Shown here: piece after piece, positions 13,601 through 36,938 of the stretch
Position numbering within the stretch: position 1 is the stretch's first letter
How the letters are laid out: each line of letters starts with the position of its first letter
Source: Anaerohalosphaeraceae bacterium
Lineage (GTDB): Bacteria > Planctomycetota > Phycisphaerae > Sedimentisphaerales > Anaerohalosphaeraceae
Length of the DNA: 64,000 nucleotides
Assembly: GCA_963675155.1 (NCBI GenBank)
Contig: OY775912.1
Span: 296,058-360,057, forward strand
Reading direction: 5' to 3'
Notes under the pieces: generated by a model
Seen by the model: the letters and a program-made list of their open reading frames with translations, nothing else
What the model was told of the DNA's origin: nothing
Databases searched by the model: none
Translations under genes and position numbers: made by a program

Positions 13601-15434
13601 TGTTCCCAATCCGCTTGAGTGGAGTTCATCGGCGGATTCCTATTTGGATTCTGATGCGACAAATCTCGTGAATTATAATATCAGTTCCTATCTCTACCTG
13701 CTTCAGGCTGGCGGTAATAATATTCTGGCAATTCACGGTCTCAACTCTGATTCTGGAAGTTCAGATTTTCTCATCTCTGCACAGCTTGAGGCTGGCGCCG
13801 TCAGCAGCGGTGGTCATACGCCTGGCGGCGAAATTTCACCCAGTGCTGTTGTATATGCCGATCCGATTACTTTGATGAAGAGTGAAAAGATCAAGGCTCG
13901 TTTAAAGAATGGATCCGATTGGGGGGCTTTGAACGAGGCGTGCTATTCGGTTGGTCCAGTAGGTGACAACCTGCGGATTACCGAGATCATGTATCACCCG
14001 GCCGATCCCAACCAGGAGTTCGTTGAGGTCCGGAACATTGGTGCGTCGACCATCAATCTGGCATGGGTTAAATTTACAGAGGGTATCGATTTCACCTTCC
14101 CCGATCTATCACTTGGAGCAGGTCAATATGCTGTTGTGGTTCGTAATCAGGCCGTCTTTGAAGCGTTGCACGGCACGGGAATAACCATTGCCGGACAGTT
14201 CAGCGGCGCACTGGATAACGGGGGTGAAGAAATCGTTCTGAAGGACGCATTTGGGGCTAAAATCCTCGATTTCGATTACAATGATAATTGGTATCCGATT
14301 ACGGATGGGGCTGGTTTCTCATTAAATATCATCAACTCGTCCAATCCGGATCCGAACAGTTGGGACGATAAAGATGCCTGGCAGGCAAGCAGTGTACTCA
14401 ACGGAAGTCCGGGAGCACACAATCCCGTCAATGTTGTTCCAAACGGCGCGATTGTCATTAATGAGATACTGACACATTCCAATGACTATCCGAATGACTG
14501 GATTGAGTTACATAATACGACCGGATCAGAAATCAGCATTGGAGGTTGGTTCCTAAGCGATAATTCAGATAATTTTAAAAAATATCAAATTGGTTCCGGG
14601 ACGTCCATTCCCGCATACGGTTATATCGTCTTTACCCAGGACGATAACTTTGGATCTTCGTCAAGCGATCCGGGCAGACTTGTCGGTTTTGGATTGAGTG
14701 AACTGGGAGAAGAGGTTTATCTTTCCAGCGGCTCTGGTGGAAATCTCGCCGGAGGTTACAGTGTTTGGCAGGATTTCGAAGCCGCTGAATGGGATATTTC
14801 CTTTGGAAGACATGTCAAGAGTACGGCGGAAAACAACGATGTTGATTTTGTTTTAATGCAAGCCATGACTTATGAAAACTCCAACTCCGGGCCGCTTATC
14901 CCCGATGTCATCATCAGCGAAATTATGTATAATCCATCGACGACTCATGACGAACTGGGCGAATATATCGAGTTGAAGAACAGAACCACTTCGACGGTTG
15001 ACCTCTTTGACCCGGCCAATCCGTCTAACACCTGGAAGTTTACAAAGGGAATTAATTATACATTTCCGCCAGGTGTCTCGATCTCTGCAGGAGAGCGGAT
15101 TCTTGTGGTTCGAACCGATCCGGAAATCTTCCGAGTGATCCACCCAACTATACCCGCAGGTGTGCAAGTTTTCGGTCCTTTTATCAATTCGAAGCTTGAA
15201 AATGATGGTGAAAAAATTGAACTTTCCAGACCGAGCAATCCGGAGCCCGGCGGTTTTGTTCCCTATATTCGTGTTGAGCAAGTCAATTACAGTGATGGTA
15301 CGCACCCGATTGGCAATGACCCGTGGCCGACAACCGCCGACGGTGAGGGCAATGCTTTGAGCCGAACTTCGGAAACCGGCTACTCCAATGATGTCAGTCA
15401 TTGGACGGCCGCCGCGCCGACTCCGGGACTGTGA
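10668..15434 (+). CDS. giant secreted CotH-domain protein with N-terminal dockerin-like repeats, CHB_HEX_C-like (YTTDGS) domains and >=4 lamin-tail domains
   Basis: Signal peptide from internal Met (MRMSCFRVASLVVLVFSLLTYAA). EF-hand-like DLDGNYYVDFEDLVLFAQQWMQ and GDVEGDDGVNLEDFALIAFNW. LTDs (LVINEVMASND...WIEIYNYGDDTVSLSGMYLRDD; RITEIMYHPADPNQEFVEVRNIG; IVINEILTHSND...WIELHNTTGSEISIGGWFLSDN; VIISEIMYNPST...YIELKNRTTSTVDLFD). IRYTTDGSIPS and GTIYYTTDGTDP motifs. CotH-like core (GIYVLMEKIKV...GGYILRVDK). Paralog of 524..4865. Confidence 0.7.
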   Translation: MRMSCFRVASLVVLVFSLLTYAASPVGDLDGNYYVDFEDLVLFAQQWMQYPDCYGAPGCGDVEGDDGVNLEDFALIAFNWQIRGEIALVINEVMASNDSTLEDPDEPGEYPDWIEIYNYGDDTVSLSGMYLRDDNNTWQIPAGISIEPDEYVLFWADDDDEQGDYHTTLKLGKSDDEVTLVSYDGETIVDSMSYSDQVTDVSYGRYPDASDDWYLMDAPSPELTNAMGMAGKVYFSSLGGTFTSSFSLTLSTTSPTAQIRYTTDGSIPSASSFPYTAPITISNSQTRRIRARAYDALLAPGPVHTEVYVPLAADIQTFTSNLPIVILDTHGSGISNTTYGEISSIFVDVDKDTGVSSMTDFSDFAGRGAAKIRGESSQAWPKKQYSLELWDENDMDAKASLLGMPSGSDWILNAPYGDKTLLRNVLAFKWSNDIENGFAAPGTKLVEVFLNDDGGNCSYADYNGIYVLMEKIKVSDNRVDIGSLDSGDIAEPDVTGGYILRVDKNNGQETFTTNANMVGSIQYYDPDETALSATQKSWIQNWLNTFETHLNASDFNDPLAGYAHYIDVENFIEYDMILELFKNADGFKLSTYFHKERNGKLRFGPQWDFNFSSGNTTNPDWWYPSYFSKASATEEGWFCDQPDFKVYSWHQRLLQDPDYMIRYADKWFEHREDKLSDAQITADIDTYYSLLTTNHAFAGGADNAADRNFAKWNILNNQEWCNYYFGYNAQLSVYDPYTGQTTQIPPEEREQANMPHTYHMETEWLKNWFNGEGTPTGSEWYQTDYSDRIGKLDALWQSDRNICMPPTLNINGTPMNLGGRVDLGDGLTMSSACAGTIYYTTDGTDPRTWTTVSNPGFAATLVAEDAAKAVLIPTETVSNDWKGGNEPFDDSTWTDFDFIAGKPGSVGYENSSGYQEFISYDVKNDLLGNNNTQSCLIRIPFFVDSAQLAEMTYLTLRVRHDDAFVAYINGIEVYRSSLVPNPLEWSSSADSYLDSDATNLVNYNISSYLYLLQAGGNNILAIHGLNSDSGSSDFLISAQLEAGAVSSGGHTPGGEISPSAVVYADPITLMKSEKIKARLKNGSDWGALNEACYSVGPVGDNLRITEIMYHPADPNQEFVEVRNIGASTINLAWVKFTEGIDFTFPDLSLGAGQYAVVVRNQAVFEALHGTGITIAGQFSGALDNGGEEIVLKDAFGAKILDFDYNDNWYPITDGAGFSLNIINSSNPDPNSWDDKDAWQASSVLNGSPGAHNPVNVVPNGAIVINEILTHSNDYPNDWIELHNTTGSEISIGGWFLSDNSDNFKKYQIGSGTSIPAYGYIVFTQDDNFGSSSSDPGRLVGFGLSELGEEVYLSSGSGGNLAGGYSVWQDFEAAEWDISFGRHVKSTAENNDVDFVLMQAMTYENSNSGPLIPDVIISEIMYNPSTTHDELGEYIELKNRTTSTVDLFDPANPSNTWKFTKGINYTFPPGVSISAGERILVVRTDPEIFRVIHPTIPAGVQVFGPFINSKLENDGEKIELSRPSNPEPGGFVPYIRVEQVNYSDGTHPIGNDPWPTTADGEGNALSRTSETGYSNDVSHWTAAAPTPGL

Positions 15435-24194: not shown

Positions 24195-24746
24195 ATGGGT
24201 CATATAAATAATTCAACCAGCACCGAAGAACGTTCGAAAAGGTTCATCTCTTTGTTGATGCCTGTCCAGCGAAAAGTGTATGCTTATGTCGCTTATCACG
24301 TTCCCGATAAGAATAACTCCGATGACCTTTTTCAAGAAGTCGTCGCAACCCTATTAACCAAGTTTGACGATTACGAAGAAGGTACGAGCTTCCTGAAGTG
24401 GGCCATCACTGTTGCCAAATATAAGATTCTTTCTTTTCACCGAGATAACAAACGCATGAAGATTGTGTTTGATGAAGCCGACATGGACCAAATTTATATC
24501 GAAGCGCAGGAAAAGATTGAGTCGCTGGAGGAAGAGTCAAAGGCATTAACAGGATGCTTAGAGAAATTATCCGATAAGCAGCGAAGCTTGGTGAATTATC
24601 GATACGGCTATGAAATGACCTACCGTCAAATTGCAAAAAAACTCAATATTTCAATGCAATCGACATACAGAGCAATTTATCGTATCCATGGATCCCTCCT
24701 GAAATGTATTCATCTGTCATTGAAGTTCAGAGGTGTCAATGAATAA
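24195..24746 (+). CDS. ECF-type sigma-70 family sigma factor (paralog of 5329..5853)
   Basis: Region 2 (DDLFQEVVATLLTKFDDYEE...LKWAITVAKYKILSFHRDNKRMK). Region 4 (LVNYRYGYEMTYRQIAKKLNISMQSTYRAIYRIHGSL). RBS gaggagg. Overlaps the downstream anti-sigma. Confidence 0.85.
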   Translation: MGHINNSTSTEERSKRFISLLMPVQRKVYAYVAYHVPDKNNSDDLFQEVVATLLTKFDDYEEGTSFLKWAITVAKYKILSFHRDNKRMKIVFDEADMDQIYIEAQEKIESLEEESKALTGCLEKLSDKQRSLVNYRYGYEMTYRQIAKKLNISMQSTYRAIYRIHGSLLKCIHLSLKFRGVNE

Positions 24747-26466
24747 TAACGACTCATTTTTAGACAATTATCCCGAGTTCTTCCCTCTCATTGCAGACAG
24801 AGAGATGACCGATGAAGAGTTTGAAGTGGTTAAAGCTTTACTGAAAACCAATCAAGCGGCCCGAAACGCTTATTTTGACATGATTAACCTTGAAGTCTTG
24901 TTACGGGACTCAAAAGAGCTGGGGGAAGGATTTGAGGGAAACCCCTGTATTGACATGGATTTTTGGCGACTTCTGGCTCACGAAGAAGAAACAAAACCAG
25001 CCATTGAAATCCCCCCCCAACAGCCGCCCCGGGAGTTGATACAAAAGGTTATTTGGCCTCAGAAAAATAAATATAAAGTGAGTAAATTCAGCATTTTTGG
25101 AATTGCGATGAATGTTGCGGCGATCCTTTTTGTCGTTCTGTTTTTGAAGTTTGCTCCCCAGCGATTTCACGCCTTTGAGGTTGCAACTCTGGTTGATCAA
25201 TTGAATGTCAAATGGGCTCATCCCGATAAAATCCGGGGAAAAGGAAGCCGTTTATGGACCGATGAAGGGCTGTTGGATTTGAAACAGGGAATGGTTAAAA
25301 TCCGATATGACGACGGCGTCGACGTTGTGATTGAAGGACCGGCATTATTTGAAATTAACCAATCGCAGGTTTATCTTGAATACGGACGTTTATACGGCTG
25401 TGTTTCGAAGTCGGGCTTGGGATTTAGAGTGGAAACGCCCACGTCACAGTTTTTGGATCATGGAACTGAATTCGGCGTATTGGCTAATATTGACGGCTCC
25501 TCGGAATTGCATGTCATGGAAGGTAAAGTTGAATTATTTACCGGTTCCAGAGGCCAATTCAAAAGCTGTCAGATGGTGCCTGAAAAAAAGGCAATAAAGT
25601 ATAATGCGACGATCGATCAAGTCAACAAGATCCCTATTCAAAAAGAGGTCTTCGCTCGGTCTTTCAATTCCGAAAGCAAGATGGTCTGGCGAGGCAAGAT
25701 GCATCTCAATCTGGCCGATATCATCGGTGGCGGCAATGGTTTTGGAGATGGGGCAATCGATGCAGGAATCGATGCGACCACCGGAAAAACGCTGGACCGT
25801 CTTTTGAATTATAATCCATTTGAAGGTTCTGCGGGATATAAGGCGGTCAGCAGCAGTCCGTATATTGACGGTGTTTTTATTCCGGGTGCCGGTGACGGTC
25901 CAATCCCCATTACGTCGGAAGGATCGTATACGGCGATATTCCCGCATACAAGCGGAGCATTGTGGGGCTATATATTCAATGGGGCATTTCATCAGGGAAC
26001 TCCTGCAACCCAAACTCCACTGGAATTAGCGGGTGTTGTTTTTGGGACGCCGGATAATCCTGCGATCACCATCCATTCGAATCAGGGGGTTACGTTCGAC
26101 CTTTCTGAAATACGAAAGAGTCTGCCGGCGTTGTCGATAACAGGCTTTCGGTCGCTTGCAGGTATTTCACAAACAGTGCAGGATGTTTTGGAGAAAAAAG
26201 AAGGTGGGGCTACTGATATTTTGCCGGAATCTCAAAAGGGTTTTAACGCTGACAGGTCAAACGTTGAATTTTGGGTTTTTCTGGACGGAAAACAGGCGTT
26301 TTGCCAGAAAATATCCAGTGCTGACGAGGCTGCTGAACTGGAGATACCCATCGCAGATAATGTTCGATTTCTGACATTGGCGGTGACAGAATCCGATGAC
26401 TCCGTTTCGTATGACTGGGCGTTATTCGGCCGACCGGAGTTGATTTTGGAGTTGGCCCGGCAGTAG
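24733..26466 (+). CDS. FecR-family transmembrane anti-sigma factor (paralog of 5853..7541)
   Basis: TM helix FSIFGIAMNVAAILFVVLFL. FecR block (GFRVETPTSQFLDHGTEFGVLANIDGSSELHVMEGKVELF). Conserved C-terminal sensor domain (VEFWVFLDGKQ...VRFLTLAVTESDD). Confidence 0.75.
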   Translation: MSMNNNDSFLDNYPEFFPLIADREMTDEEFEVVKALLKTNQAARNAYFDMINLEVLLRDSKELGEGFEGNPCIDMDFWRLLAHEEETKPAIEIPPQQPPRELIQKVIWPQKNKYKVSKFSIFGIAMNVAAILFVVLFLKFAPQRFHAFEVATLVDQLNVKWAHPDKIRGKGSRLWTDEGLLDLKQGMVKIRYDDGVDVVIEGPALFEINQSQVYLEYGRLYGCVSKSGLGFRVETPTSQFLDHGTEFGVLANIDGSSELHVMEGKVELFTGSRGQFKSCQMVPEKKAIKYNATIDQVNKIPIQKEVFARSFNSESKMVWRGKMHLNLADIIGGGNGFGDGAIDAGIDATTGKTLDRLLNYNPFEGSAGYKAVSSSPYIDGVFIPGAGDGPIPITSEGSYTAIFPHTSGALWGYIFNGAFHQGTPATQTPLELAGVVFGTPDNPAITIHSNQGVTFDLSEIRKSLPALSITGFRSLAGISQTVQDVLEKKEGGATDILPESQKGFNADRSNVEFWVFLDGKQAFCQKISSADEAAELEIPIADNVRFLTLAVTESDDSVSYDWALFGRPELILELARQ

Positions 26467-26608: not shown

Positions 26609-27376
26609 ATGATGGAAACACGAAATATGATGAACGTATCAATTTTGGCAGTATTACTTGTATTTGGACTGAACCTGGTTGCTCCGGTTTATGGTGTAAC
26701 CGTTCTGGTCGATTTTGGTAACAACGACTCGTATGGCGGAGTCACCGCGCCAAGTCCCGATGGAAACGGTAACTACTGGACCAGTGTCTGGAGCGGCGCC
26801 TACTATCCCGACATGGTTGACATTGACGGCAATGCCACCACCATCGACTTCGGCTTTGCCACCCCCGGCGGAACCGACAGCTACAACGGACCTGCCGGTG
26901 TCACTTCCCAGCCCGACCCAACTCAAGCGAATATTGACGCGACGGATATCGATGCCGTTGCGCTGGGCAACCTTGGCGTCAATGAGGCCGCGATGGACTT
27001 CTATACGAATTCAACATTTGAGATCCAGGGTTTGGATCCGACCAAAACCTATAATCTGACCTTCTTCGGTTCCCACAAGTGGGGTGGTCTCACAACCGTG
27101 TATTCGATTTATACCGACAACACCTATTCAACCTTGGTCGATTCAGCCAGTCTCGACGTCATGGATGCGGCCAGCAACTGGCTGCATAATCGCGATACAG
27201 TGGTGACGATCAGCGGACTGGCACCGCAGACGAGCGATATCCTGTATGTCAAGTTCGAAGGGATAAATGCCACTGAAGGTTATCTCAACGCTATGCAGAT
27301 CGAAGAAGTTCCCGAACCGGCAACGATGATATTGCTTTTGGCAGGCGGACTGCTGGCGCGTAAACGCCGACAGTAG
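26609..27376 (+). CDS. PEP-CTERM-anchored protein carrying only the novel family-A N-terminal domain
   Basis: Signal peptide. ~85% nt identity to the N-domains of 21635 and 27500. Ends MQIEEVPEPATMILLLAGGLLARKRRQ*, a classic PEP-CTERM (PEP + TM + basic tail). Confidence 0.7.
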   Translation: MMETRNMMNVSILAVLLVFGLNLVAPVYGVTVLVDFGNNDSYGGVTAPSPDGNGNYWTSVWSGAYYPDMVDIDGNATTIDFGFATPGGTDSYNGPAGVTSQPDPTQANIDATDIDAVALGNLGVNEAAMDFYTNSTFEIQGLDPTKTYNLTFFGSHKWGGLTTVYSIYTDNTYSTLVDSASLDVMDAASNWLHNRDTVVTISGLAPQTSDILYVKFEGINATEGYLNAMQIEEVPEPATMILLLAGGLLARKRRQ

Positions 27377-27499
27377 ATCGAATTTACAGCCGCCGGACTG
27401 ATGAGCATATTTACGGATCAGCAAACAGGATTGATGATATCAGGGAGTCAATAAATAGATCAGTCTAAGGTGCAAAATTGTCAAGAACAGGAGAGAACA

Positions 27500-28966
27500 A
27501 TGAAAACATGGAACATGATGACAGTATCAGTTTTAGCCATACTGCTTGCAGTCGGCTTGAACCTACCTGCCCCGGCATACGGCGAAACCGTTCTCATTGA
27601 CTTTGGGAACGATTCCTCGTGGGGCGGAGTTACCACGCCGAGTCCCGATGTAAACGGCAATTACTGGACGAGCGTCTGGAGCGACGCTTACTATCCCGAC
27701 ATGGTTGACATTGATGGTAACCCTACCACCATCGACTTCGGCTTTGCCCCGGGCGGTGCAGGCGGAACCGACAGCTACAACGGCCCGGCCGGTGTCACGT
27801 CCCAACCCGACCCCACTCCGGCGAACATTGCCGCGACGGATATCGATGCCGTTGCCCTCGGCAACCTGGGCGTCAATGAAGCGGCAATGGACTTCTATAC
27901 CTCGTCGAGTTTTGAGATTCAGGGCCTGAATCCGGACAAAACCTACAACCTGACGTTCTTTGGGTCGCATAAGTACAGTACCGATGCCACAACGGTGTAT
28001 GAGATCTATACCGATAACACCTATACCTCCATGATTGCTTCCGCCAACCTCGACATCTCAGATGCTCCACAAAGTGCATCCCACAATCGGGATATGGTGG
28101 CTACGATCAATGATCTCGACCCCCAGGATGATAATATCCTGTATGTCAAGTTTATCGGTATAGATGGTGGTTTCGGCTATCTCAACTGCATGCAGATCGA
28201 AGAAGCCCTTGGTGTTAAAGCACGGAATCCGGTACCTCGTGATGGAGCAACGGTTGTACCGGTCACAACGAATTTAAAATGGAACCGGCCGAGCGAGTAT
28301 TCACCTGCCAAGTCTGTTCTTCGTTTCCGGCCCGCTGACACTTCAGATCCCAACTGGATCGTGGTCGATCCGGTGGACGATCTTGACCTGGATGGCGATT
28401 TGGCCACGATCGAAGCAGCGGTGCCGATGGTGCTGGACTTCAACACGAAGTATGATTGGAAAGTTACTTCTTTTAAGCTTAATGACCCCAATGAGTTTGA
28501 GGGGCCGATCTGGTCGTTTACCACTGAAGCGGAACTGCGGGTAGATGCCGGTCCCAGCATCATAACCTGGCTGCAGGACGGCAGTGTCAACGTTGATTTA
28601 AACGGATCGATCACCTATCCGGATACTTTGAGCAGTATACTATGGTCTGTGGTGGATAAGCCTGTCACGGCCACGGTTGACATTGATGATGACACCTCAG
28701 CAGTCACGTCGGCGTCGCTTGATGTAACCGGCGACTATGTCCTGAAATTGTGGGCTCAGGACGATAGTGTGCCGCTCGAAGATGAAGACACTATTGAGAT
28801 CCATGTGTTCGCAGACGCCTGCCTGGCGGCCAAAGCCAATCCCGCCGGCTACACGCCTCTGTTGCATGATTCTACCGATGATTGCCGGGTAGACCTTGAA
28901 GACTTCGTGCAGTTCGCTGCCGACTGGCTCACAGACCTCTCGCTGACGGAAAACCTTGAATATTAG
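27500..28966 (+). CDS. secreted protein: family-A N-terminal domain + Ig/fn3-like domains + dockerin-like C-terminus
   Basis: Signal peptide MKTWNMMTVSVLAILLAVGLNLPAPAYG. Shared N-domain. Shared Ig-like segment (WNRPSEYSPAKSVLRFRP...YDWKVTSF). C-terminal DDCRVDLEDFVQFAADWL. Confidence 0.6.
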   Translation: MKTWNMMTVSVLAILLAVGLNLPAPAYGETVLIDFGNDSSWGGVTTPSPDVNGNYWTSVWSDAYYPDMVDIDGNPTTIDFGFAPGGAGGTDSYNGPAGVTSQPDPTPANIAATDIDAVALGNLGVNEAAMDFYTSSSFEIQGLNPDKTYNLTFFGSHKYSTDATTVYEIYTDNTYTSMIASANLDISDAPQSASHNRDMVATINDLDPQDDNILYVKFIGIDGGFGYLNCMQIEEALGVKARNPVPRDGATVVPVTTNLKWNRPSEYSPAKSVLRFRPADTSDPNWIVVDPVDDLDLDGDLATIEAAVPMVLDFNTKYDWKVTSFKLNDPNEFEGPIWSFTTEAELRVDAGPSIITWLQDGSVNVDLNGSITYPDTLSSILWSVVDKPVTATVDIDDDTSAVTSASLDVTGDYVLKLWAQDDSVPLEDEDTIEIHVFADACLAAKANPAGYTPLLHDSTDDCRVDLEDFVQFAADWLTDLSLTENLEY

Positions 28967-29056: not shown

Positions 29057-30649
29057 TTATATATTGTTGATTTCTTTCCATGAAATGCTGAATTTAGCTA
29101 AATATTTCTTTAATCGGTCTGCATCATTGGGCCGGGCCTTTTGTGTTCTGGAGACATTGAAAAGCTGTCGTCCTGCCTCAGATAGACTTTTGGCTTTTGA
29201 ACATACTTTTATGACATGAGCCAGTTGCGGCCTGTCAAATTCGTCAATTTTAGCCAGTCTTTCTTTTCCGAGGAGTTTTTCCAAGAGATCGGTATTGTTA
29301 TCTTGTCTGGCCGATTGCCAGGATTTAAGGAGTCTCTGGATTTCTTCTTCCACAATATCTTCGCAGATTCGGCCTCCGGGGGCCAGTGTGGCCATGCGGG
29401 TAATCGCCCCGATCAGATCACGGAAATTCGATTTCCACATTGCTTGGCCCGACGTACTGAATGACAGGAAGCGTCTTTGAGCTTCTTTATTAAATCTGAC
29501 ATGCGTGCCGGCTTTACTGGCGTATTGATCCAGTTCGTACTGGATATTAGGCTCGATGTCTTCGCGGCGATCCTTCAAACCCGGCAGGTGAAACGTCCAC
29601 AGGTTGATTCTGGCCAGCAGGTCTTCGCGGAATTGCCCGGAATTGATATTGGCCTGTAAATCTCTATTGGTCCCACAGATCAGCTGAAAGTCGCTGCTGA
29701 CCTCTTTGTCAGATCCAACGGGCAGGAATTTCTTTTCTTCGATGGCTCGAAGCAGCATCGATTGCTCCTCAATGCCCAGTTCGCCAACTTCATCGAGGAA
29801 TAGAATACCGCCATCGGCTGTTTTTAAGAGACCCTCTCTGGCCTGTACAGCACCTGTAAACGCTCCTTTTGTATGCCCAAAGAGGGCTGACATCGCTGCG
29901 TCACCCCGAATGGTTGCACAGTTGACCTCTACAAAATCCCCTCTGAGTTTTTTGTGCGTCTTTTTAAGCTCAAAGATTCGTTGGGCTAGCTGGGATTTAC
30001 CGGCTCCGGTAGGTCCCATGAGCAGAATAGGATCTGTTGTCCGGGCTCCAACATGCTCGATCCGTTCAATCAGGGCATTGAAATTCTTATTCTTTGTTTG
30101 GATACCGGATTTTAAAAATGAGATATCGTCACACAACTGCTGCTTGAACCGCATCGCGATTCGGTCATACTTGGACAGGTCTAAATCGATAATTTGATAA
30201 CTGCCCGGTCCCTGATCTGTTTCTCGTTTTGGAGGGCTTGTTTGCAGCAGTCTGCCGGGGAAGTAGCGAGATTCGGTTAACAGGAACTCGCATATCTGAG
30301 AAACGTGTGTCCCTGTTGTGATATGGACTAAATACTCTTCATGGTCAGGGTCAAAGTCATAGTCTTTCGAAAAGTCATGGAGGACGCCGTACACCTCCTG
30401 GAAGTCCCAGGGATTATCCCAGTCAATGACATGAGGGACCACCTTTGTTTCCGGGGAAACAAGACCGATGTCTTTGATCACGCTTTTAGCGATCTTCTCG
30501 AATTTCCGTTGAAAGAGTAATTCAAAACGATCGACCAGCAGTTCTTCGTGTTGGCAGATTGAGACCGTTGGCCGCCAGAAGTTCCAGCGATCCGGTCCTT
30601 GCCCGCGGTCGAGATTAGGCCCCAACAATCCGATGACTACATTCTTCAT
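29057..30649 (-). CDS. rtcR: RtcR: sigma-54-dependent transcriptional activator with N-terminal CARF-like domain
   Basis: AAA+ sigma-54 interaction domain with GAFTGA (HTKGAFTGA), Walker A GPTGAGKS, ILFLDEVGEL. Long N-terminal non-receiver domain typical of RtcR CARF. Divergent from the rtcA/rtcB block. Confidence 0.85.
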   Translation of the reverse strand: MKNVVIGLLGPNLDRGQGPDRWNFWRPTVSICQHEELLVDRFELLFQRKFEKIAKSVIKDIGLVSPETKVVPHVIDWDNPWDFQEVYGVLHDFSKDYDFDPDHEEYLVHITTGTHVSQICEFLLTESRYFPGRLLQTSPPKRETDQGPGSYQIIDLDLSKYDRIAMRFKQQLCDDISFLKSGIQTKNKNFNALIERIEHVGARTTDPILLMGPTGAGKSQLAQRIFELKKTHKKLRGDFVEVNCATIRGDAAMSALFGHTKGAFTGAVQAREGLLKTADGGILFLDEVGELGIEEQSMLLRAIEEKKFLPVGSDKEVSSDFQLICGTNRDLQANINSGQFREDLLARINLWTFHLPGLKDRREDIEPNIQYELDQYASKAGTHVRFNKEAQRRFLSFSTSGQAMWKSNFRDLIGAITRMATLAPGGRICEDIVEEEIQRLLKSWQSARQDNNTDLLEKLLGKERLAKIDEFDRPQLAHVIKVCSKAKSLSEAGRQLFNVSRTQKARPNDADRLKKYLAKFSISWKEINNI

Positions 30650-30786
30650 GGTATATATATCCGTATATAGAATTATAATATATTATAAGTATAAGTGTCG
30701 GCTCATTTATGGTCAATGCTTAATTGATAATTTTTATGCCATTCTAAATAAAGGAGTTATGTTCATTTTTGCTTTTATTTAAAAGT

Positions 30787-30802
30787 CTGGCACGCAGGTT
30801 GT
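30787..30802 (+). promoter_or_regulatory. sigma-54 (-24/-12)-type promoter candidate, oriented toward the tRNA-like element / SPFH / tRNA array / rtcAB
   Basis: TGGCACG-CAGG-TTGTA versus consensus TGGCACG-N4-TTGCW; the -12 element is GT instead of GC. Lies ~140 bp from the rtcR start, on the opposite strand. Confidence 0.45.
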
Positions 30803-31000
30803 ACATAGTAGATCAAGTAATTAACGCTCTTATGAAAATTAAAGATGAAGTTTCCGCCGGGCCAGCGGCATACCAGTGACAGCCATGCTGTTTCATTGCG
30901 TATGTACCGTGAGTGGGTTCTAACGAAGGTGGAACTATTCGAGCGGCGAGAATTGGAAAATGCGACCAATGTCAATTCTTTCGATTCCCGCATCGGATCC

Positions 31001-31085
31001 CAATGGTTAGCTCAGAGGGTAGAGCATCGGGCCGTTAACCCGAAGTCGTGGGTTCGATTCCCACACCGACCGCCGCGAGAGCGGC
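31001..31085 (+). ncRNA. tRNA-like element with canonical D-arm, anticodon arm (GTT, Asn-type) and T-arm but no good 7-bp acceptor stem, followed by a GNRA-capped hairpin
   Basis: TAGCTCAGAGGGTAGAGC D-arm. TCGGG-CCGTTAA-CCCGA anticodon arm. GTGGG-TTCGATT-CCCAC T-arm. The 5' strand CAATGGT pairs only 4/7 with the 3' strand ACCGACC. Then GCCGC-GAGA-GCGGC. Confidence 0.4.
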
Positions 31086-31448
31086 TCAAAGAAGGGCTCG
31101 AAGGAAACATTTGGTCTATCTGGCAGTTGACAGGTTTTTCTGACTCACCTCGTTGGCCTGTCAACACCATTTGTAAACGCTCTGCAGTATGCGGATACCG
31201 CTTACTTCTGGCCAAGAGCAAAGACGTCGATGACGAACAAGCAATGACGGATTTCGCTGGTAATAGGAAATCTGAAATTGCGACCTTCCGAATCGCCTCT
31301 TACCTTGTTCAAAGTGAACTTAAGCATGCTCCGCGTGAAAGATGGGGCAATAGTCAAATGTTTCCTGAAAGCCTCTTATGACAAATGCCCGGCGATAAAT
31401 GAAAGAATAAATACAAGGTGAGAAAATAGAATAAAAAGGAGAATTAAA

Positions 31449-32552
31449 ATGAGTATTAAAACGATCAAAATCCATTCGTATGAAAAGGGATTCCACTTCC
31501 GTAACGGTGAGCTGATTGGTTTGCTGGACGAAGGTCGCCACTGGTTTCTGAAACCTGTTGCGAAGGACCAGGTTTATGTATCAAACCTGCGAGATCCTTG
31601 GATTCGCCATAACGACCTTGACTTGATTGTTAAGTCCGGCGTTTTGGAAGGCAAGGCTCAGGTTCTGGACCTTCAGGACTTCCAACGCGGGTTGGTCTGG
31701 GTGGATGGTCGTTTTGAAGCGATTGTGTCCGGCGGAATCTATGCGATCTGGACGACGCATCGTGCCGTGAAAGTGGAAATCATTGATGCACGGGACGTTC
31801 GGTTTAACCACCGTGACATCAGCGTTATCCTGAAATCCTCAGGTGCCAAAGAGCTTTTGGATGAGAACACCGTCGCTGAAGATCACGTGGGTGTTTACTT
31901 CCAGAATGGCCGCTATGTGGAAACGCTGGATGCCGGGCGCTATGTGTTCTGGAAAGGCATTGAGAAAGTACATGTTTTTCAGGTGGATCTGTCCGAGTTG
32001 TCTTTGGATATCTCCGGCCAGGAAATCATGACGGCGGATAAAGTGACTTTGCGTATGAATGCGGTGGTTGCTTACACCGTTCAGGATGCTGAAAAGGCCG
32101 TTCGTTCGACAACGGATGTCAAGCAGTCGCTGTACCGCGAAACTCAGTTGGCCTTGCGAGCGATTGTTGGGTCACGTCAGCTGGATGAATTGCTGGCTGA
32201 TAAGGATGCTCTGGCTGATGAACTACAAGGTCAGATTGCAGAGCGAGCCGAGTCATTCGGTTTGAAGCTGACAGCTCTGGGAATTCGAGATGTGATCCTG
32301 CCCGGTGAAATGAAGAATCTGTTGAATAAGGTGACTGAGGCTAAAAAGGCGGCAGAAGCGAACCTGATTGCTCGCAGAGAAGAGACCGCCGCGATGCGTT
32401 CTCAGGCAAACACAGCCAAGTTGCTGGAAAACAACCCTGTATTGATGCGGCTGCGTGAACTGGAAGTACTGGAAAACATCTCAACCAATTCCAAGTTGAA
32501 TGTGGTGCTGGGTGAAAAAGGGCTGGCCGATAGAGTGGTCAACCTGTTGTAG
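31449..32552 (+). CDS. SPFH/band-7 (stomatin/flotillin-like) domain protein
   Basis: SPFH-like core (LRMNAVVAYTVQDAEKAVRSTTDVKQSLYRETQLALRAIVGSRQLDELLADKDALADEL...LKLTALGIRDVILPGEM) and coiled-coil tail. RBS aaaaaggag. Confidence 0.7.
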   Translation: MSIKTIKIHSYEKGFHFRNGELIGLLDEGRHWFLKPVAKDQVYVSNLRDPWIRHNDLDLIVKSGVLEGKAQVLDLQDFQRGLVWVDGRFEAIVSGGIYAIWTTHRAVKVEIIDARDVRFNHRDISVILKSSGAKELLDENTVAEDHVGVYFQNGRYVETLDAGRYVFWKGIEKVHVFQVDLSELSLDISGQEIMTADKVTLRMNAVVAYTVQDAEKAVRSTTDVKQSLYRETQLALRAIVGSRQLDELLADKDALADELQGQIAERAESFGLKLTALGIRDVILPGEMKNLLNKVTEAKKAAEANLIARREETAAMRSQANTAKLLENNPVLMRLRELEVLENISTNSKLNVVLGEKGLADRVVNLL

Positions 32553-32618
32553 GCGGCAGAAGAAGGGGCAGGCCGGAAGTTTCACCGGTCTGTCCCGCGC
32601 AAAAAAGTAAAGGTTGAA

Positions 32619-32692
32619 TGCTCCGTGGCCCAACTGGAAGAGGCAGCGGGTTTTGAACCCGTTCGTTGCAGGTTCGATTCCTGCCGGAGCTG
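32619..32692 (+). tRNA. tRNA-Gln (anticodon TTG)
   Basis: Manual fold: acceptor TGCTCCG/CGGAGCT (U1.U72 mismatch). Anticodon arm GCGGG-TTTTGAA-CCCGT. T-arm GCAGG-TTCGATT-CCTGC. Confidence 0.65.
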
Positions 32693-32697
32693 AATGA

Positions 32698-32772
32698 CTG
32701 GATGTAGGGCAGCCTGGGTAGCCTACTCGCCTTGGAAGCAAGACGTCGTTGGTTCGAATCCAACCATCCAGA
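32698..32772 (+). tRNA. tRNA-Pro (anticodon TGG)
   Basis: Acceptor CTGGATG/CATCCAG perfect. D-arm GGGCAGCCTGGGTAGCCT. Anticodon loop CTTGGAA. T-arm GTTGG-TTCGAAT-CCAAC. Confidence 0.7.
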
Positions 32773-32774
32773 CT

Positions 32775-32847
32775 GTGACCGTAGCTTAATTGGTAAAGCA
32801 CCAGATTGTGATTCTGGGGAGTACGGGTTCGAGTCCCGCCGGTCACC
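32775..32847 (+). tRNA. tRNA-His (anticodon GTG); no encoded G-1
   Basis: Acceptor GTGACCG/CGGTCAC, discriminator C. Anticodon arm CCAGA-TTGTGAT-TCTGG. T-arm ACGGG-TTCGAGT-CCCGC. The nucleotide at -1 is T. Confidence 0.65.
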
Positions 32848-32867
32848 CTTTGAAAAGAGAATGTTGA

Positions 32868-32938
32868 GCGTTGACGGTATAATGGCAACATACGGGCTTG
32901 CCAAGTCTGTGATGGGAGTTCGAATCTCCCTCGACGCA
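32868..32938 (+). tRNA. tRNA-Gly (anticodon GCC)
   Basis: Acceptor GCGTTGA/TCGACGC. Anticodon loop TTGCCAA; the anticodon stem has two G-U pairs. T-arm GGGAG-TTCGAAT-CTCCC. Confidence 0.6.
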
Positions 32939-32941
32939 ATC

Positions 32942-33012
32942 GGCCTCGTCGTCTAGTGGCAGGACACCAGATTTTCGATCTGTGAACGTGAGTTTGATTC
33001 TCACCGAGGCTA
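32942..33012 (+). tRNA. tRNA-Glu (anticodon TTC)
   Basis: D-arm TCGTCTAGTGGCAGGAC typical of tRNA-Glu. Anticodon loop TTTTCGA. T-arm GTGAG-TTTGATT-CTCAC. Acceptor GGCCTCG/CGAGGCT (G1.U72). Confidence 0.6.
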
Positions 33013-33018
33013 TTAATC

Positions 33019-33092
33019 GGCTCTGTAGCCCAATTGGCAGAGGCGGCGGACTTAGAATCCGCTCAGTGTAGGTTCGACTCCTACCGGGGCTA
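33019..33092 (+). tRNA. atypical tRNA: Gln-like body with anticodon TAG (would read CUA Leu codons) and a short class-I variable loop
   Basis: D-arm GCCCAATTGGCAGAGGC and T-arm GTAGG-TTCGACT-CCTAC closely resemble the tRNA-Gln at 32619. Anticodon arm GCGGA-CTTAGAA-TCCGC. 5-nt variable loop, unlike class-II tRNA-Leu. Acceptor has three G-U pairs. Confidence 0.45.
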
Positions 33093-33097
33093 GTAAA

Positions 33098-33169
33098 GGA
33101 ACGGTAGCTGAGATGGTTTAGCGAAAGCCTGAAAAGGTTCAGACGTTGGTTCGAACCCATCCCGTTCCA
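33098..33169 (+). tRNA. tRNA-Phe-like (anticodon GAA) with weak anticodon stem and one T-stem mismatch; possibly a pseudo-tRNA
   Basis: Acceptor GGAACGG/CCGTTCC perfect. Loop CTGAAAA. The anticodon stem AAAGC/GGTTC has only 3 Watson-Crick pairs. Confidence 0.45.
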
Positions 33170-33254
33170 CTTAATGGAAATATAATTTGAATAACCTAAT
33201 TAAGATGGATACAATCTCATAGACAACAATAAAGGAGTTTAAAGGAATACAGCA

Positions 33255-34274
33255 ATGATTACGATTGATGGATCATTTGGAGAAGGTGGCGGACAAATTC
33301 TTCGCAGCAGCGTGGCATTGTCGCTGATTACCGGGAAACCATTTCAAATCGAGAATATTCGAGCCGGACGTAAAAAGCCCGGTTTGATGCGGCAGCACTT
33401 AACCGCAGTTAATGCGGCCGTTGAAGTGGGTGCCGCTGATGTGAGCGGTAATGCGATTGGATCGCAGAGCTTGACCTTCGCACCGAAAGCAATTAATGCG
33501 GGTACTTACAAGTTTGCGGTTGGGACTGCAGGCAGCACAACGCTTGTGCTGCAAACAATTCTGCCAGCTTTGCTGATTGCTGATAAACCCTCTGAGATTA
33601 CATTGGAAGGTGGAACACACAATCCGTTTGCTCCGCCATTCAGCTTCCTGGAAAAGGTGTTCGTTCCTGTTCTGAATAAAATGGGACCTGAGATCAGCCT
33701 GGACCTTCAACGCCCGGGTTTTTATCCTGCCGGTGGTGGATGCTTTACGGTCAAGATTCAACCTAAAGCGAAGTTGGACAGAATTGACATCATCGAGCGA
33801 GGTGAGATTGTCAGCCGATCTGCTAAGGCCTATGTGGCTTATCTGTCGGAGAAAATCGCCAGCCGGGAACTGAGAGTGATACGGAACAAGCTTTCGTGGG
33901 ACGAAAAGGACACGGAGATTATCAAAGTACGGGATTCAAATGGTCCGGGTAATATCGTGACGGCAGAGATTCAAAGTGAGAATATTACTGAGCTATTTAC
34001 TGGTTTTGGAATGAAGGGTTTGCCTGCGGGTAAAGTGCCGCTGGGGATGGTCGATGAAGCTCGGGAGTACTTGGCCGCAGGGGTTCCTGTGGCAAGACAC
34101 CTGGCCGATCAGTTGATGATTCCGATGGCCATGGCTGGCGGTGGAACGTTTAGAACGCTGCCGTTGACGCTGCATTCGACGACGAATATCGAGATTCTGA
34201 AAAAGTTCTTGGATGTTCAGGTTGAAGTCACCAAACTGGAAAAAGATTTTTATGAAATCAATATCATCGCGTGA
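33255..34274 (+). CDS. rtcA: RNA 3'-terminal phosphate cyclase RtcA
   Basis: N-terminus ITIDGSFGEGGGQILRSSVALSLITGKPFQIENIRAGR, typical of RtcA. ~339 aa. RBS aaaggag. Confidence 0.9.
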   Translation: MITIDGSFGEGGGQILRSSVALSLITGKPFQIENIRAGRKKPGLMRQHLTAVNAAVEVGAADVSGNAIGSQSLTFAPKAINAGTYKFAVGTAGSTTLVLQTILPALLIADKPSEITLEGGTHNPFAPPFSFLEKVFVPVLNKMGPEISLDLQRPGFYPAGGGCFTVKIQPKAKLDRIDIIERGEIVSRSAKAYVAYLSEKIASRELRVIRNKLSWDEKDTEIIKVRDSNGPGNIVTAEIQSENITELFTGFGMKGLPAGKVPLGMVDEAREYLAAGVPVARHLADQLMIPMAMAGGGTFRTLPLTLHSTTNIEILKKFLDVQVEVTKLEKDFYEINIIA

Positions 34275-35704
34275 TGATTGACGATGGAGATAATGAAATG
34301 AAAACACGACAATTAGCGAATCTTGGAATCCCTCGCGGGGAAACCATGAAGATGACTCAGGACGCGATTAAGCAATGGCTTCAATCGTATGACGGCTATC
34401 TGAATAATGCGGCGATCTGCCAGAAGATCAATGACCTGGCCAAGAATCCATCTGAATATCTGGAAGATGAGCACTTTGGTCAAATTGCTAAAATACTGAA
34501 TGAAAGCAAGGAGGCACGAGCGACTTATGTCGATCGCCCAGAGCCGGCTTACTACCAGCGGTGGGGTTCGGATCTGGAAGATAAGGCGATTGAGCAGATG
34601 GAAAATGCGTGCAAACTGCCGATTTCCATTTGTGGTGCCTTGATGCCGGATGCTCATGTGGGTTATGGCTTGCCGATCGGCGGCGTTCTGGCAACTCAAG
34701 ATGCGGTTATCCCATACGCCGTTGGGATGGACATTGCCTGCCGTATGAAAATGACGGTGTTGGATTTGCCGGTTAATGCGTTGACGGGACAAGCGGATCG
34801 TTTGAAAAATGCTCTTGAGACTGAAACGCGTTTTGGTGTTGGGGCATCGTTCAAAAAATACCGTGAACATGACGTGATGGATGAAGACTGGTCGTTTAGC
34901 CCGATTGTTAATCGATTTAAGGACAAAGCCTGGAGTCAGCTTGGAACCAGCGGAAGCGGAAACCATTTTGCCGAATTTGGAACATTGATGCTGGATCAGG
35001 ATGATCTTGGGCTTAAGGCCGGGACTTATCTAGCCTTGCTGAGTCATAGTGGAAGCCGGGGGATTGGAAACGAAATCGCTACGTACTTCAGCAAGCTGGC
35101 AGTCCAGAAGCATCCGGAATTGCCAAAAGAGCTGATGCATCTGTCATGGTTGGATACCGATAGTGCCGAGGGCCAGGAATACTGGCAGGCGATGGAACTG
35201 ATGGGACGCTATGCGGCGGCCAATCATAAGCTGATCCATCGGCATATTGCCAAAAACCTGAACGTTAAGGTGCTTTTGGATGTGGAAAACCACCATAACT
35301 TTGCCTGGAAAGAAGTGCATGACGGGCAGGAAGTAATTGTTCACCGTAAGGGTGCGACGCCTGCCGATGACGGTGCGCTTGGAATTATTCCCGGATCAAT
35401 GGGGACATCCGGCTATGTGGTTCGCGGAAAAGGTAAGCCCGAATCGCTAAACTCTGCTTCTCATGGAGCAGGCCGGAAGATGAGCCGTAAGAAAGCCAAA
35501 GAGACATTTACCTGGCATGATGCCAAGAAATTTCTCAAGGATCGCGGTGTTCAGCTGATCTCTGCAGGACTGGATGAGGTCCCAATGGCGTATAAAGATA
35601 TCGAGGAAGTGATGGCTGCTCAGAATGATCTGGTTCAGCCAATCGCTCGCTTCGATCCAAAAATCGTAAAAATGGCCCCAGCCGGAGAAAGACCGGAGGA
35701 TTAA
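34271..35704 (+). CDS. rtcB: RNA-splicing ligase RtcB (3'-phosphate/5'-hydroxyl RNA ligase); the called ORF has an N-terminal extension
   Basis: RtcB blocks (MPDAHVGYGLPIGGV, HNFAWKEVHDGQEVIVHRKGATPA, IIPGSMGTSGYVVRG, SASHGAGR). Start overlaps the rtcA stop (ATGA). Confidence 0.9.
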   Translation: MMIDDGDNEMKTRQLANLGIPRGETMKMTQDAIKQWLQSYDGYLNNAAICQKINDLAKNPSEYLEDEHFGQIAKILNESKEARATYVDRPEPAYYQRWGSDLEDKAIEQMENACKLPISICGALMPDAHVGYGLPIGGVLATQDAVIPYAVGMDIACRMKMTVLDLPVNALTGQADRLKNALETETRFGVGASFKKYREHDVMDEDWSFSPIVNRFKDKAWSQLGTSGSGNHFAEFGTLMLDQDDLGLKAGTYLALLSHSGSRGIGNEIATYFSKLAVQKHPELPKELMHLSWLDTDSAEGQEYWQAMELMGRYAAANHKLIHRHIAKNLNVKVLLDVENHHNFAWKEVHDGQEVIVHRKGATPADDGALGIIPGSMGTSGYVVRGKGKPESLNSASHGAGRKMSRKKAKETFTWHDAKKFLKDRGVQLISAGLDEVPMAYKDIEEVMAAQNDLVQPIARFDPKIVKMAPAGERPED

Positions 35705-35706
35705 CA

Positions 35707-36279
35707 ATGTGTCATTTTCTAACAGCTGTATTATCAGCAGACGCTGATATTGAAAATTGTAGTTTAATTGCAGAGAAATTCCAGCGAATTTTTGAACCTG
35801 TTTCAAATCAACACGTTCAAAAACAGCTGGAACCTAAGATGAAATACTATTGCATGACAAAGGGTAATTGTGATTGCGGCACAATATGGGGCAAGGGGAA
35901 CGGATCTGGAGATATCAAGAAGAAAATGAATCGTAAACTTAAAAAGCTTCGAAATAAAGGATGGTCTGAAGCTAAAATAAAACGATTTATAGAAAGCAAA
36001 AATCAGGCTTCTCAAGGTGATCAAGCAAGTCTCAAGAAACAACATGTAGATTGTGAAACGTTAGCACAGCAATGGATATCATTTGTTTCGGAAATCATTG
36101 ACCAAGGTTTATCAGACTATATGGGGATTCTTCTGCATTGGTACTCCGGAAATCTTGAAAAGGAAAAAGTTGATATCCAGCAAATAGAGAAAATTACGTT
36201 GAGTGAGCTCACCCCAACCTTTATATGGAAAGCCAAAGAAGACGTGCTGTATATCTTTAAGAAAAATAGGGGTGTATAG
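35707..36279 (+). CDS. hypothetical Cys- and Lys-rich protein (unknown family), translationally coupled between rtcB and prfH
   Basis: ATG 3 nt after the rtcB stop. Stop TAG overlaps the GTG start of the next gene (tagtg). CMTKGNCDCG cluster and basic stretch KKKMNRKLKKLRNKGW. Locally lower GC than the neighbours. Confidence 0.5.
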   Translation: MCHFLTAVLSADADIENCSLIAEKFQRIFEPVSNQHVQKQLEPKMKYYCMTKGNCDCGTIWGKGNGSGDIKKKMNRKLKKLRNKGWSEAKIKRFIESKNQASQGDQASLKKQHVDCETLAQQWISFVSEIIDQGLSDYMGILLHWYSGNLEKEKVDIQQIEKITLSELTPTFIWKAKEDVLYIFKKNRGV

Positions 36280-36938
36280 TGACAAATTGGTTACAAGTTA
36301 CCTCAGGGCGTGGACCAGATGAATGCTGTTGGGTTGTGGCCAGGGTTGTCGAGGCAATCACTCAAGATGCGTCGGCAAATGGCTATAACTTAAATGTATT
36401 GGAAGTCGTGCCGGGAAGTAAGCCGGATTTGTTTAAGTCAGCACTGCTTTCTATTGAAGGCGACGGTTTATCTGAATTCTTGTCTCAATGGGAAGGGACG
36501 ATTCAGTGGATTGGAAAAAGTCAATTCCGTCCCAAGCATAAGCGGAAAAACTGGTTTGTGGGTGTCACATCTTATGAAGCTCCTGAAGAAGTTGATTATA
36601 GCTGCAGTGAATTTCGATTTGAAAGCATGCGATCATCCGGTCCCGGCGGTCAGCACGCTAACAAAATCGAATCGGCCGTGCGTGTCACCCATATGCCCAC
36701 GGGAATTAATGCCATCGCACAGGAAGAACGATCCCAGCATATGAATCGAAAATTGGCATTAAGCCGGTTGCATAAAAAACTCCAGCAACAAAAGCAGAGT
36801 ACTGAAATGCAGCTCCAGCAGGAACGATGGGATGAACATAATGCCTTGGAAAGAGGCAACCCCATCCGAGTGTATGAAGGTCTCAAATTCAAGCTAAAAA
36901 GAATAGACAAAAATAAAGAGTTAAGGATTATTCGATGA
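36279..36938 (+). CDS. prfH: PrfH-type (RF-H) peptide chain release factor homolog with GGQ motif, lacking the RF domain 1
   Basis: SSGPGGQHANKIESAVRVTH GGQ domain. N-terminal SGRGPDECCWVV...GTIQWIG...RPKHKRKNWF pattern characteristic of the RF-H family. ~219 aa. Encoded immediately after rtcB, as in described rtcB-prfH pairs. Confidence 0.75.
   Translation: MTNWLQVTSGRGPDECCWVVARVVEAITQDASANGYNLNVLEVVPGSKPDLFKSALLSIEGDGLSEFLSQWEGTIQWIGKSQFRPKHKRKNWFVGVTSYEAPEEVDYSCSEFRFESMRSSGPGGQHANKIESAVRVTHMPTGINAIAQEERSQHMNRKLALSRLHKKLQQQKQSTEMQLQQERWDEHNALERGNPIRVYEGLKFKLKRIDKNKELRIIR

Follow-up and report, generated by a model that had tools for sequence, protein, structure and literature searches.

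Organization of the rtcR locus

The window analysed here is a stretch of 64,000 nucleotides from Anaerohalosphaeraceae bacterium (assembly GCA_963675155.1, contig OY775912.1), and between positions 29057 and 36938 it carries an RNA-repair locus in which the activator gene rtcR faces away from genes for a structured leader RNA, a Band-7 protein, seven tRNAs, the repair enzymes RtcA and RtcB, an uncharacterised protein and the release-factor homolog PrfH. The coupling of PrfH to an RtcB1-like ligase under RtcR/sigma-54 control, confined to one small monophyletic lineage, appears to be new. A sequence-only reading of the DNA had listed these elements and proposed that they form a unified damage-response operon; profile scores and tRNA calls placed all of them at or near the positions it had given, and every gene identification proved right.

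Transcribed divergently from the operon, rtcR (29057–30649, minus strand) encodes a protein that reached 797.2 bits with the RtcR equivalog model NF038308 (cutoff 650), comprising an N-terminal CARF-like domain (PF06956, 271 bits) and a sigma-54 AAA+ domain (PF00158, 169.7 bits) with GAFTGA present in the translation, in agreement with the long CARF-type domain read from the letters alone. This RtcR is 90% identical to its orthologs in two related loci, L001 and L082 (L numbers denote the comparison loci). The sigma-54 (−24/−12) promoter that had been proposed to point away from rtcR, TGGCACG-N4-TTGTA, was located at 30788–30803 on the plus strand (TGGCACGcaggTTGTA), 139 nt from the rtcR start and facing the operon; it is the sole sigma-54 core match in the window, with 0.06 expected by chance. 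L001 and L087 carry an exact copy of the motif at the corresponding intergenic site, the motif is likewise present there at E. coli rtcBA, and in L082 (4886) and L084 (5595) the site holds variants with two mismatches each.

The repair genes follow on the plus strand. RNA 3'-terminal phosphate cyclase is encoded by rtcA (33255–34274; NF003246, 434 bits, cutoff 352; PF01137, 277 bits), and the overlapping or abutting rtcB (34271–35704; PF01139, 302.7 bits) encodes an RNA 3'-phosphate ligase with SHGAGR aligned to the E. coli His337 nucleophile motif. Instead of GTG 34271, the likely rtcB start is ATG 34298, which lies behind a GGAG Shine-Dalgarno sequence and gives the 468-aa length called in relatives. 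Next come ORF190, an open reading frame of 190 aa (35707–36279), and prfH (36279–36938), whose GTG start codon shares 1 nt with the stop codon of ORF190. Intergenic spacings from rtcA to prfH are 23, 2 and −1 nt with a Shine-Dalgarno sequence at each junction, and no terminator-like site was detected on the plus strand between 30.8 and 36.9 kb; these tight junctions and the absence of a terminator-like site make a single transcription unit across the locus plausible.

A PrfH joined to an RtcB1-like ligase

The 219-aa prfH product reached 257.7 bits with the RF-H model TIGR03072 (cutoff 166.65) and has its GGQ at residues 123–125, confirming the earlier assignment to a GGQ-containing release-factor homolog of the PrfH pattern. 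The protein lacks release-factor (RF) domain 1, aligns only to residues ~115–309 of RF2, and matches the solved CgPrfH and EcPrfH proteins with 188 and 180 bits, respectively. The ribosome contacts of EcPrfH are largely retained, with 10 of 15 identical, two conservatively replaced (H85K and R52K) and three different (A9G, Q10R and R181W). The A1493-3'P pocket is identical (window R84, H87, R89 and R192, corresponding to R83, H86, R88 and R189 of EcPrfH), as are the h18 contacts (window K90 and N91, corresponding to K89 and N90); judged by these residues, the window PrfH probably reads the same 16S rRNA lesion as EcPrfH. The PrfH-CT subtype was considered and rejected, the tail being ~15 aa and the proteins of the lineage 209–219 aa long as against 225–250 aa for that subtype.

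The ligase is 36% identical to E. coli RtcB1 (198 bits) and 29% identical to the PrfH-linked Desulfonema RtcB2 (119 bits). Its identification as RtcB2 was rejected on the TIGR03073 score (162 bits, cutoff 271.8) and on its placement in a neighbour-joining tree with three groups, namely RtcB2, E. coli-type RtcB1 and a long clade that is sister to the RtcB1 group and contains the window protein. By sequence, RtcB is assigned to this RtcB1-like long subclade, which is marked by an N-terminal extension of ~95 aa. The long RtcB proteins adjacent to PrfH (window, L001 and L082–87) make up one small monophyletic branch within a part of the tree whose other members have no PrfH, and the capture of PrfH therefore looks like a single derived event. 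The parallel with RtcB2–PrfH pairs in the sequence-only reading held for synteny, as prfH accompanies this ligase in a small lineage of relatives, but not for the class of the ligase.

The lineage comprises five distinct loci: the window, L001 (ENA), L082/L083 (GCA_028282905.1), L084–86 (JGI) and L087 (ENA). The relatives are metagenome-assembled genomes, and the neighbours have a PVC-like appearance. Homologs of PrfH at 64–87% identity led to L082/L083, L084–86 and L087, in all of which the order RtcR, leader tRNA-like elements, Band-7, tRNA array (where there is one), RtcA, long RtcB and PrfH is kept; prfH follows the long rtcB with no gene between them in L082, L084 and L087, whereas ORF190 intervenes in the window. 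L001 was reached through the only close homolog of ORF190, and its RtcR, RtcA, RtcB, ORF190 and PrfH are 87–90% identical to the window proteins. Identities to the window RtcB, RtcR, Band-7 and PrfH, respectively, are 89, 90, 91 and 82% in L082, 76, 79, 80 and 75% in L084, and 75, 73, 74 and 64% in L087; this parallel divergence, together with the monophyly of the PrfH-linked RtcB proteins, argues that the fused operon has been inherited vertically.

We compared this lineage with two wider samples. Neither PrfH nor ORF190 occurs in 80 genome loci of the closest RtcB relatives (55–72% identity; Planctomycetota, Verrucomicrobiota, Acidobacteriota and others). Of the 80 PrfH loci sampled from metagenomes, a short RtcB2 gene immediately precedes prfH in ~65; most of the others sit on short or truncated contigs where no ligase is visible, and a ligase nearer to that of the window was found only in L121 and L160 (plus the partial L102). 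Canonical RtcB2–PrfH pairs lie 4–10 kb from separate RtcB1-like/RtcA/Band-7/tRNA/RtcR operons in six loci (L116, L135, L141, L143, L144 and L154), often with tRNA-Lys(UUU); clustering of the two repair systems is therefore recurrent, and the window has the look of a streamlined fusion.

The genes beyond prfH differ among the relatives. A methyltransferase gene of the PF10237 family (N6-adenineMlase/EFM5-like) stands right after prfH in L082 (10635–11120), L083 (3551–4036) and L087 (10634–11131) and is absent from the window; that it encodes a modifier dedicated to PrfH, for example of the GGQ glutamine, is speculation. In L084, genes for tRNA-Ile, tRNA-Ala, 23S and 5S rRNA (11213–14819) lie directly downstream of prfH.

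A structured leader and an exchangeable Band-7 cassette

The untranslated leader RNA (30853–31448, plus strand) is collinear with the leaders of L082 (84%) and L084 (71%), and its fold has a z-score of −4.3 relative to shuffled sequence; no gene is called in this region in the relatives. It is a conserved structured RNA of ~600 nt, not a spacer, and the tRNA-like element noticed in the sequence-only reading is one of its components. A mechanically derived open reading frame of 178 aa (30845–31381), which overlaps the tRNA-like leader and is uncalled in relatives, was rejected as a gene. In the relatives the leader carries a class-II tRNA-Leu(GAG)-like unit; right behind it stands a second tRNA-like unit, whose acceptor stem is short, and the hairpin GCCGCGAGAGCGGC and a conserved GGCTCGAAGGAAAC box come after the two. 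Alignment with these relatives showed that the class-II unit of the window (~30915–30997) is degenerate, a 23-nt loss having removed its variable arm together with half the T stem. The second unit, a b7a-type tRNA-like element (31004–31068, plus strand), forms a cloverleaf in which the acceptor stem has 4 bp and the anticodon-like loop reads GUU, and is followed by the hairpin GCCGCGAGAGCGGC at 31072–31085. The Rfam tRNA model matches it at 31005–31067 with 53.2 bits over model positions 5–66, and ARAGORN made no call for it; RNAalifold on four genomes predicted 24 pairs, with compensatory double changes at 11, and the anticodon differs in all four genomes (GUU, GCU, GUG and GAU). The Rfam score and the 11 covarying pairs bear out the claim of a tRNA-like RNA.

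The gene that follows (31449–32552, plus strand, 367 aa) was rightly read as SPFH/Band-7 (PF01145, 110 bits). With an SPFH gene near RtcB and a tRNA-like non-coding RNA just upstream, the locus has the composition of the Band-7/b7a-tRNA module. Burroughs and Aravind (2016) reportedly predicted a band-7 associated tRNA beside Band-7 and RtcB, and the leader element matches it.

The same module is exchanged as a block in L001, where Ro60 (TROVE/vWA) and up to three YrlA-like RNAs at 3651–5819 replace the tRNA-like leader and Band-7 at window positions 30760–32619. Nucleotide homology between the two loci breaks at window 30759 and 32620, exactly bounding the cassette, and the flanks are 82–92% identical; the best YrlA-like RNA of L001 scored 68.7 bits, the gathering score of RF02553 being 69. 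The interchangeability of Band-7/b7a-tRNA with Ro60 plus Y RNA is seen directly in this pair, and nothing else in our comparisons argues as strongly for functional equivalence of the two scaffold modules as this clean swap between near-identical operons. A YrlA RNA in the window itself was rejected, the sole RF02553 match reaching 22.7 bits as against 69 and spanning two adjacent tRNAs.

Short motifs resembling the stem of Y RNA (GACGAATGC ... TTTGTCG) were also seen between array tRNAs of L001 (6296–6365 and 6458–6523); they are similar to partial Y RNA modules, and Rfam reported nothing at either position.

A tRNA array inside the probable repair operon

The seven-tRNA array (32619–33170, plus strand; ARAGORN and Rfam) runs in the order Gln-UUG, Pro-UGG, His-GUG, Gly-GCC, Glu-UUC, Leu-UAG and Phe-GAA with Rfam scores of 48.7–65 bits. 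That several of its members are atypical, as had been remarked, holds for five of them: Leu-UAG is 74 nt long and class-I-like without a long variable arm, tRNA-Gln has a U1–U72 mismatch, tRNA-Gly and tRNA-Glu carry A73, and tRNA-Phe has two mismatches in the anticodon stem. None of the seven encodes CCA. The body of Leu-UAG is common to Gln-UUG and to the Arg-ACG of relatives, the difference lying mainly in the anticodon, and the discriminators track amino-acid identity (G73 in Gln, A73 in Leu and G-1:C73 in His).

Membership of the array shifts among close relatives. L001 has all seven window tRNAs in the same order plus Glu, Arg and Tyr; L082 retains five, their relative order unchanged, and adds Ser, Arg and Tyr, without Glu and Phe; and no array follows Band-7 in L084 and L087. 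As these shifts involve His-GUG, Phe-GAA, Glu-UUC and Tyr-GUA, which are single-isoacceptor species, housekeeping copies are expected elsewhere, and we infer that the array is auxiliary and redundant with them. Between the window and L001, the array is 91.6% identical at the nucleotide level and the flanking genes 82–83%. In the orthologous columns 9% of stem and 20% of unpaired positions vary, and of 20 predicted pairs that vary, 14 remain paired, 4 through compensatory changes; this variation between stems and loops and the retention of pairing place the array genes under tRNA-like constraint.

Linkage of tRNAs to this ligase extends beyond the lineage. In the 80 genome loci of the RtcB clade, 50 of 58 tRNAs share the strand of rtcB and lie no more than 6.5 kb upstream of it, distributed over 11 loci. 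L032 has a 20-tRNA array interrupted by Band-7, and L076 has four short Leu tRNAs ahead of a Band-7–RlaP–RtcB series, with RlaP (1716–2609) between Band-7 and RtcB. A 17-tRNA array with embedded Band-7 and RtcB1 was noted in L116. On predicted viral contigs from IMG/VR (L174–L178, L185 and L187–L189), members of the long RtcB clade (46–61% identity) stand by 10–21 tRNAs. Over all loci, 41 of 53 Leu tRNA calls are shorter than 80 nt (for example in L032, L076, L116, L174–L178 and L187–L189), and all 41 belong to RtcB-linked arrays; the long Leu tRNAs are leader-type or unrelated housekeeping genes. Leu tRNAs without a long variable arm are thus a hallmark of RtcB-linked arrays. A conserved HNH endonuclease gene flanks RtcB in four loci with tRNA arrays (L032, 8096–8680; L036, 11444–12028; L041, 3505–4086; L043, 3303–3914).

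ORF190 and neighbouring genes

The sequence-only reading had counted the 190-aa frame as part of the system. The frame is present at the position it gave, but it is not a conserved member: ORF190 occurs in two of the five distinct loci of the lineage (window and L001), is absent from L082, L084 and L087, and in the neighbourhoods of three other members of its family no link to RNA repair was found, the contexts being unrelated. ORF190 was therefore rejected as a conserved system member and is treated as a lineage-specific insertion between rtcB and prfH. No match was found in Pfam, NCBIfam or PHROG, and a PADLOC match to HamA (E=0.0035) was rejected for want of a passing stretch. A word-indexed search returned 2 homologs and an exhaustive HMMER search 866 cluster representatives, of which 485 reached E≤1e-10. 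Almost every one is ~185 aa long with an N-terminal MC[HY][FY]; C2, C55 and C57 (CxC), W86 and W123 are invariant, and H144 and several other residues nearly so. The hidden Markov model of this family found only the window and L001 among the loci fetched to that point. ORF190 defines a large uncharacterised family without a known fold. Charged-helix accessory proteins have been noted near RFH–RtcB pairs, and no link between them and ORF190 was found.

Beyond the 3' end of rtcR, the window encodes two adjacent paralogous secreted proteins (26609–27376 and 27470–28966) that share an N-terminal domain of ~250 aa, the first with a PEP-CTERM-like C-terminal anchor; a Pfam search of both products gave no match.

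A probable RNA-damage response operon and its alternatives

We consider it probable that the locus constitutes one RtcR/sigma-54-dependent RNA-damage response operon built from four modules. Activation of RtcR by tRNA fragments with 2',3'-cyclic phosphate ends is known for Salmonella and E. coli only (PMC7790460). By homology with these, the CARF-like domain of the window RtcR would sense nicked tRNAs or tRNA fragments with such ends, and the activated protein would open the sigma-54 promoter at 30788, giving a transcript that would span the locus. The ~600-nt leader with its b7a-type tRNA-like elements and the cytosolic SPFH/Band-7 protein are predicted to form a ligase scaffold or cofactor equivalent to Ro60 and Y RNA. 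The seven auxiliary tRNAs would be excised from the transcript by tRNA-processing enzymes and would either replenish the species attacked by anticodon nucleases or serve as decoys for them. RtcA and the RtcB1-like RtcB would heal and seal broken RNA, and PrfH would release ribosomes stalled through 16S rRNA cleavage at A1493. On this reading PrfH was taken from a canonical RtcB2–PrfH pair and would now depend on the resident RtcB1-like ligase, ORF190 being a presumed later insertion. The unified operon of the sequence-only reading is consistent with the unique sigma-54 site, the lack of a terminator-like site on the plus strand and the tight junctions, with four corrections: the Band-7 module had already been predicted, rtcB-linked and co-regulated tRNA arrays had been published for cyanobacteria (PMC8421152), the ligase is RtcB1-like and ORF190 is not a conserved member of the system.

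E. coli keeps tRNA repair (RtcR–RtcBA) and repair of the decoding centre (RtcB2–PrfH) separate, whereas this lineage joins the rescue factor to a tRNA-type ligase and a tRNA-fragment sensor. A bolder and rather doubtful version of the reading is that one RtcR-switched RtcB1-like ligase repairs both nicked tRNAs and colicin-E3-type 16S cuts, with PrfH clearing the ribosomes first and the co-transcribed tRNAs acting as replacements or decoys. If true, it would describe an integrated circuit of sensing, rescue, repair and replacement and would break the substrate exclusivity of RtcB1 and RtcB2 that holds in E. coli. The lineage thereby offers a natural test of whether one RtcB can serve both targets and whether ribosome rescue can be placed on the same alarm as tRNA repair, and the locus is a compact, genetically tractable case of tRNAs embedded in a repair operon.

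Several observations weigh against this interpretation of the locus. In E. coli, RtcB1 and RtcB2 have no substrates in common, and RtcB1 leaves cleaved 30S subunits unrepaired (PMC9304027), so an RtcB1-like partner of PrfH is not obviously competent for 16S repair; no second RtcB or RtcB2 was found in the 64-kb window, but an RtcB2 may lie elsewhere in the genome. The absence of the array from L084 and L087 makes it dispensable for the core system. The 23-nt deletion in the class-II element of the window leader and the weakened anticodon stem of tRNA-Phe suggest that parts of the locus may be decaying. A weak sigma-70-like site also lies upstream of rtcA (33187–33215), its 9 of 12 matches being at chance level.

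Such weak sigma-70-like matches, and the common clustering of bacterial tRNA genes, could be taken to mean that nothing but chance has set an ordinary housekeeping tRNA operon, the array, and a separate gene, prfH, next to rtcBA. We regard this as very improbable, as array membership varies in close relatives (L082 lacks Phe and Glu, the window lacks Tyr, and L084 and L087 are arrayless), tRNAs are strongly enriched upstream of and co-oriented with rtcB (binomial P~3e-32, a value inflated by non-independence and drawn from 11 of 80 loci), and in three loci (window, L001 and L082) the prfH start overlaps the stop codon before it. A second account accepts the linkage but sees the array tRNAs and the leader tRNA-like elements as sponges for anticodon nucleases, or as sacrificial substrates whose fragments amplify RtcR induction. 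The anticodon of the leader element varies while its stems covary, Gln-UUG, Leu-UAG and Arg-ACG share one body with the anticodon as the main difference, the class-I-like Leu tRNAs are restricted to RtcB-linked arrays, and the operonic tRNAs of Anabaena, for which a sponge role has been proposed, were the only ones seen cleaved among a tested subset (PMC8421152). Against it, the discriminators of the window array fit amino-acid identity, 23 of 26 Anabaena operonic tRNAs are charged in vivo (PMC8421152) and the stems are under purifying selection as in ordinary tRNAs. We judge this account unlikely, and decoy and translation roles could co-exist.

Somewhat more credible, though still rather doubtful, is the view that the block is mainly a horizontally mobile RNA-repair/tRNA island of phage or long-tRNA-array type, its make-up owed to the shuffling of modules and not to a co-adapted pathway, with PrfH and ORF190 as recent hitch-hikers. 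The same RtcB clade stands by 19–21 tRNAs on IMG/VR contigs; rve transposase genes flank the L001 island (1–840 and 12299–12718), in which a 3' fragment of tRNA-Tyr and a decayed tRNA-Phe-like gene follow prfH (11722–11818); and an ECF-sigma/FecR pair lies upstream of rtcR in the window (24195–26466) and downstream of prfH in L001, so that the island has moved or been inverted. The exchange of Band-7 and Ro60 as a cassette, the restriction of ORF190 to two genomes and the six loci with RtcB2–PrfH pairs close to RtcB1/Band-7/tRNA/RtcR operons fit the same view. However, no integrase or phage genes were found inside or beside the window copy, and the monophyly of the PrfH-linked RtcB proteins and the parallel divergence of RtcB, RtcR, Band-7 and PrfH speak for vertical descent of the fused operon; mobility would in any case be compatible with function.

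Comparison with known systems

The RtcR–RtcBA, Band-7/b7a-tRNA and Ro60/Y-RNA modules, RtcB2–PrfH pairs and rtcB-linked tRNA arrays are all known already. The sequence-only reading had regarded the arrangement as undescribed, which fails for the Band-7/b7a-tRNA module and the rtcB-linked arrays and stands for the fusion of PrfH to an RtcB1-like ligase under RtcR: in the searchable literature, which excluded the 2016 survey and its supplements, we found no description of that fusion in an RtcR operon or of a tRNA array embedded in an RtcR repair operon.

The closest regulatory parallels are the rtcR–rtcBA locus of E. coli and the rtcR, rsr–yrlBA–rtcBA locus of Salmonella, which have in common with the window a divergent CARF-like RtcR, the same sigma-54 core, RtcA and an RtcB1-like ligase, and whose Ro60 and YrlA-like RNAs are matched in the relative L001. 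In contrast to these, rtcA precedes rtcB in the window, Band-7 takes the place of Ro60, and a tRNA array, ORF190 and prfH are added; the ligase, at 36% identity to EcRtcB1, further differs in its ~95-aa N-terminal extension.

The combination of a tRNA-like RNA, Band-7 and RtcB is the predicted 'b7a-tRNA/Band-7' module of Burroughs and Aravind (2016) as cited in bioRxiv 10.1101/312249. As far as that citation describes these systems, the shared features are a Band-7 gene by RtcB, a tRNA-like non-coding RNA ahead of it and the possibility of a swap with Ro60/Y RNA; compared with the systems so described, the operon examined here has two tandem leader tRNA-like units (the first degenerate in the window), a conserved 5' box and 3' hairpin, and a separate seven-tRNA array after Band-7.

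RtcB2–PrfH pairs act in sequential ribosome rescue and repair (PMC9304027). Like the pairs of E. coli ATCC 25922 (Tian et al. 2022) and Capnocytophaga (PrfH-CT, 2026), the window encodes an equivalog PrfH with GGQ and the A1493-3'P pocket, and its prfH is packed tightly downstream of an rtcB and apparently translationally coupled. Unlike in those pairs, PrfH does not directly follow an RtcB2-type ligase: the partner is RtcB1-like, ORF190 lies between the two, and RtcR/sigma-54 control, rtcA, Band-7 and tRNAs are added. The basic C-terminal tail of the window PrfH, 15 aa, is shorter than that of Capnocytophaga PrfH-CT.

The trn operon of Anabaena is the nearest parallel to the array. It comprises a long tRNA array in whose conserved neighbourhood HNH and rtcB are found; translational stress induces it together with rtcB, and 23 of the 26 tRNAs are aminoacylated in vivo (PMC8421152). 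There, too, auxiliary tRNAs have a physical or regulatory link to rtcB, and a role in sustaining or shielding the tRNA pool during translational stress has been proposed for them. The HNH gene of the trn regulon is paralleled in L032, L036, L041 and L043, whereas the window has none. With seven genes, the window array is smaller than long tRNA arrays (~20 or more, with up to 43 genes described), and related loci reach 21. What distinguishes the window from the Anabaena system is that its seven tRNAs lie inside the repair operon itself, which is placed under RtcR/sigma-54 control rather than under a TrcR-type repressor.

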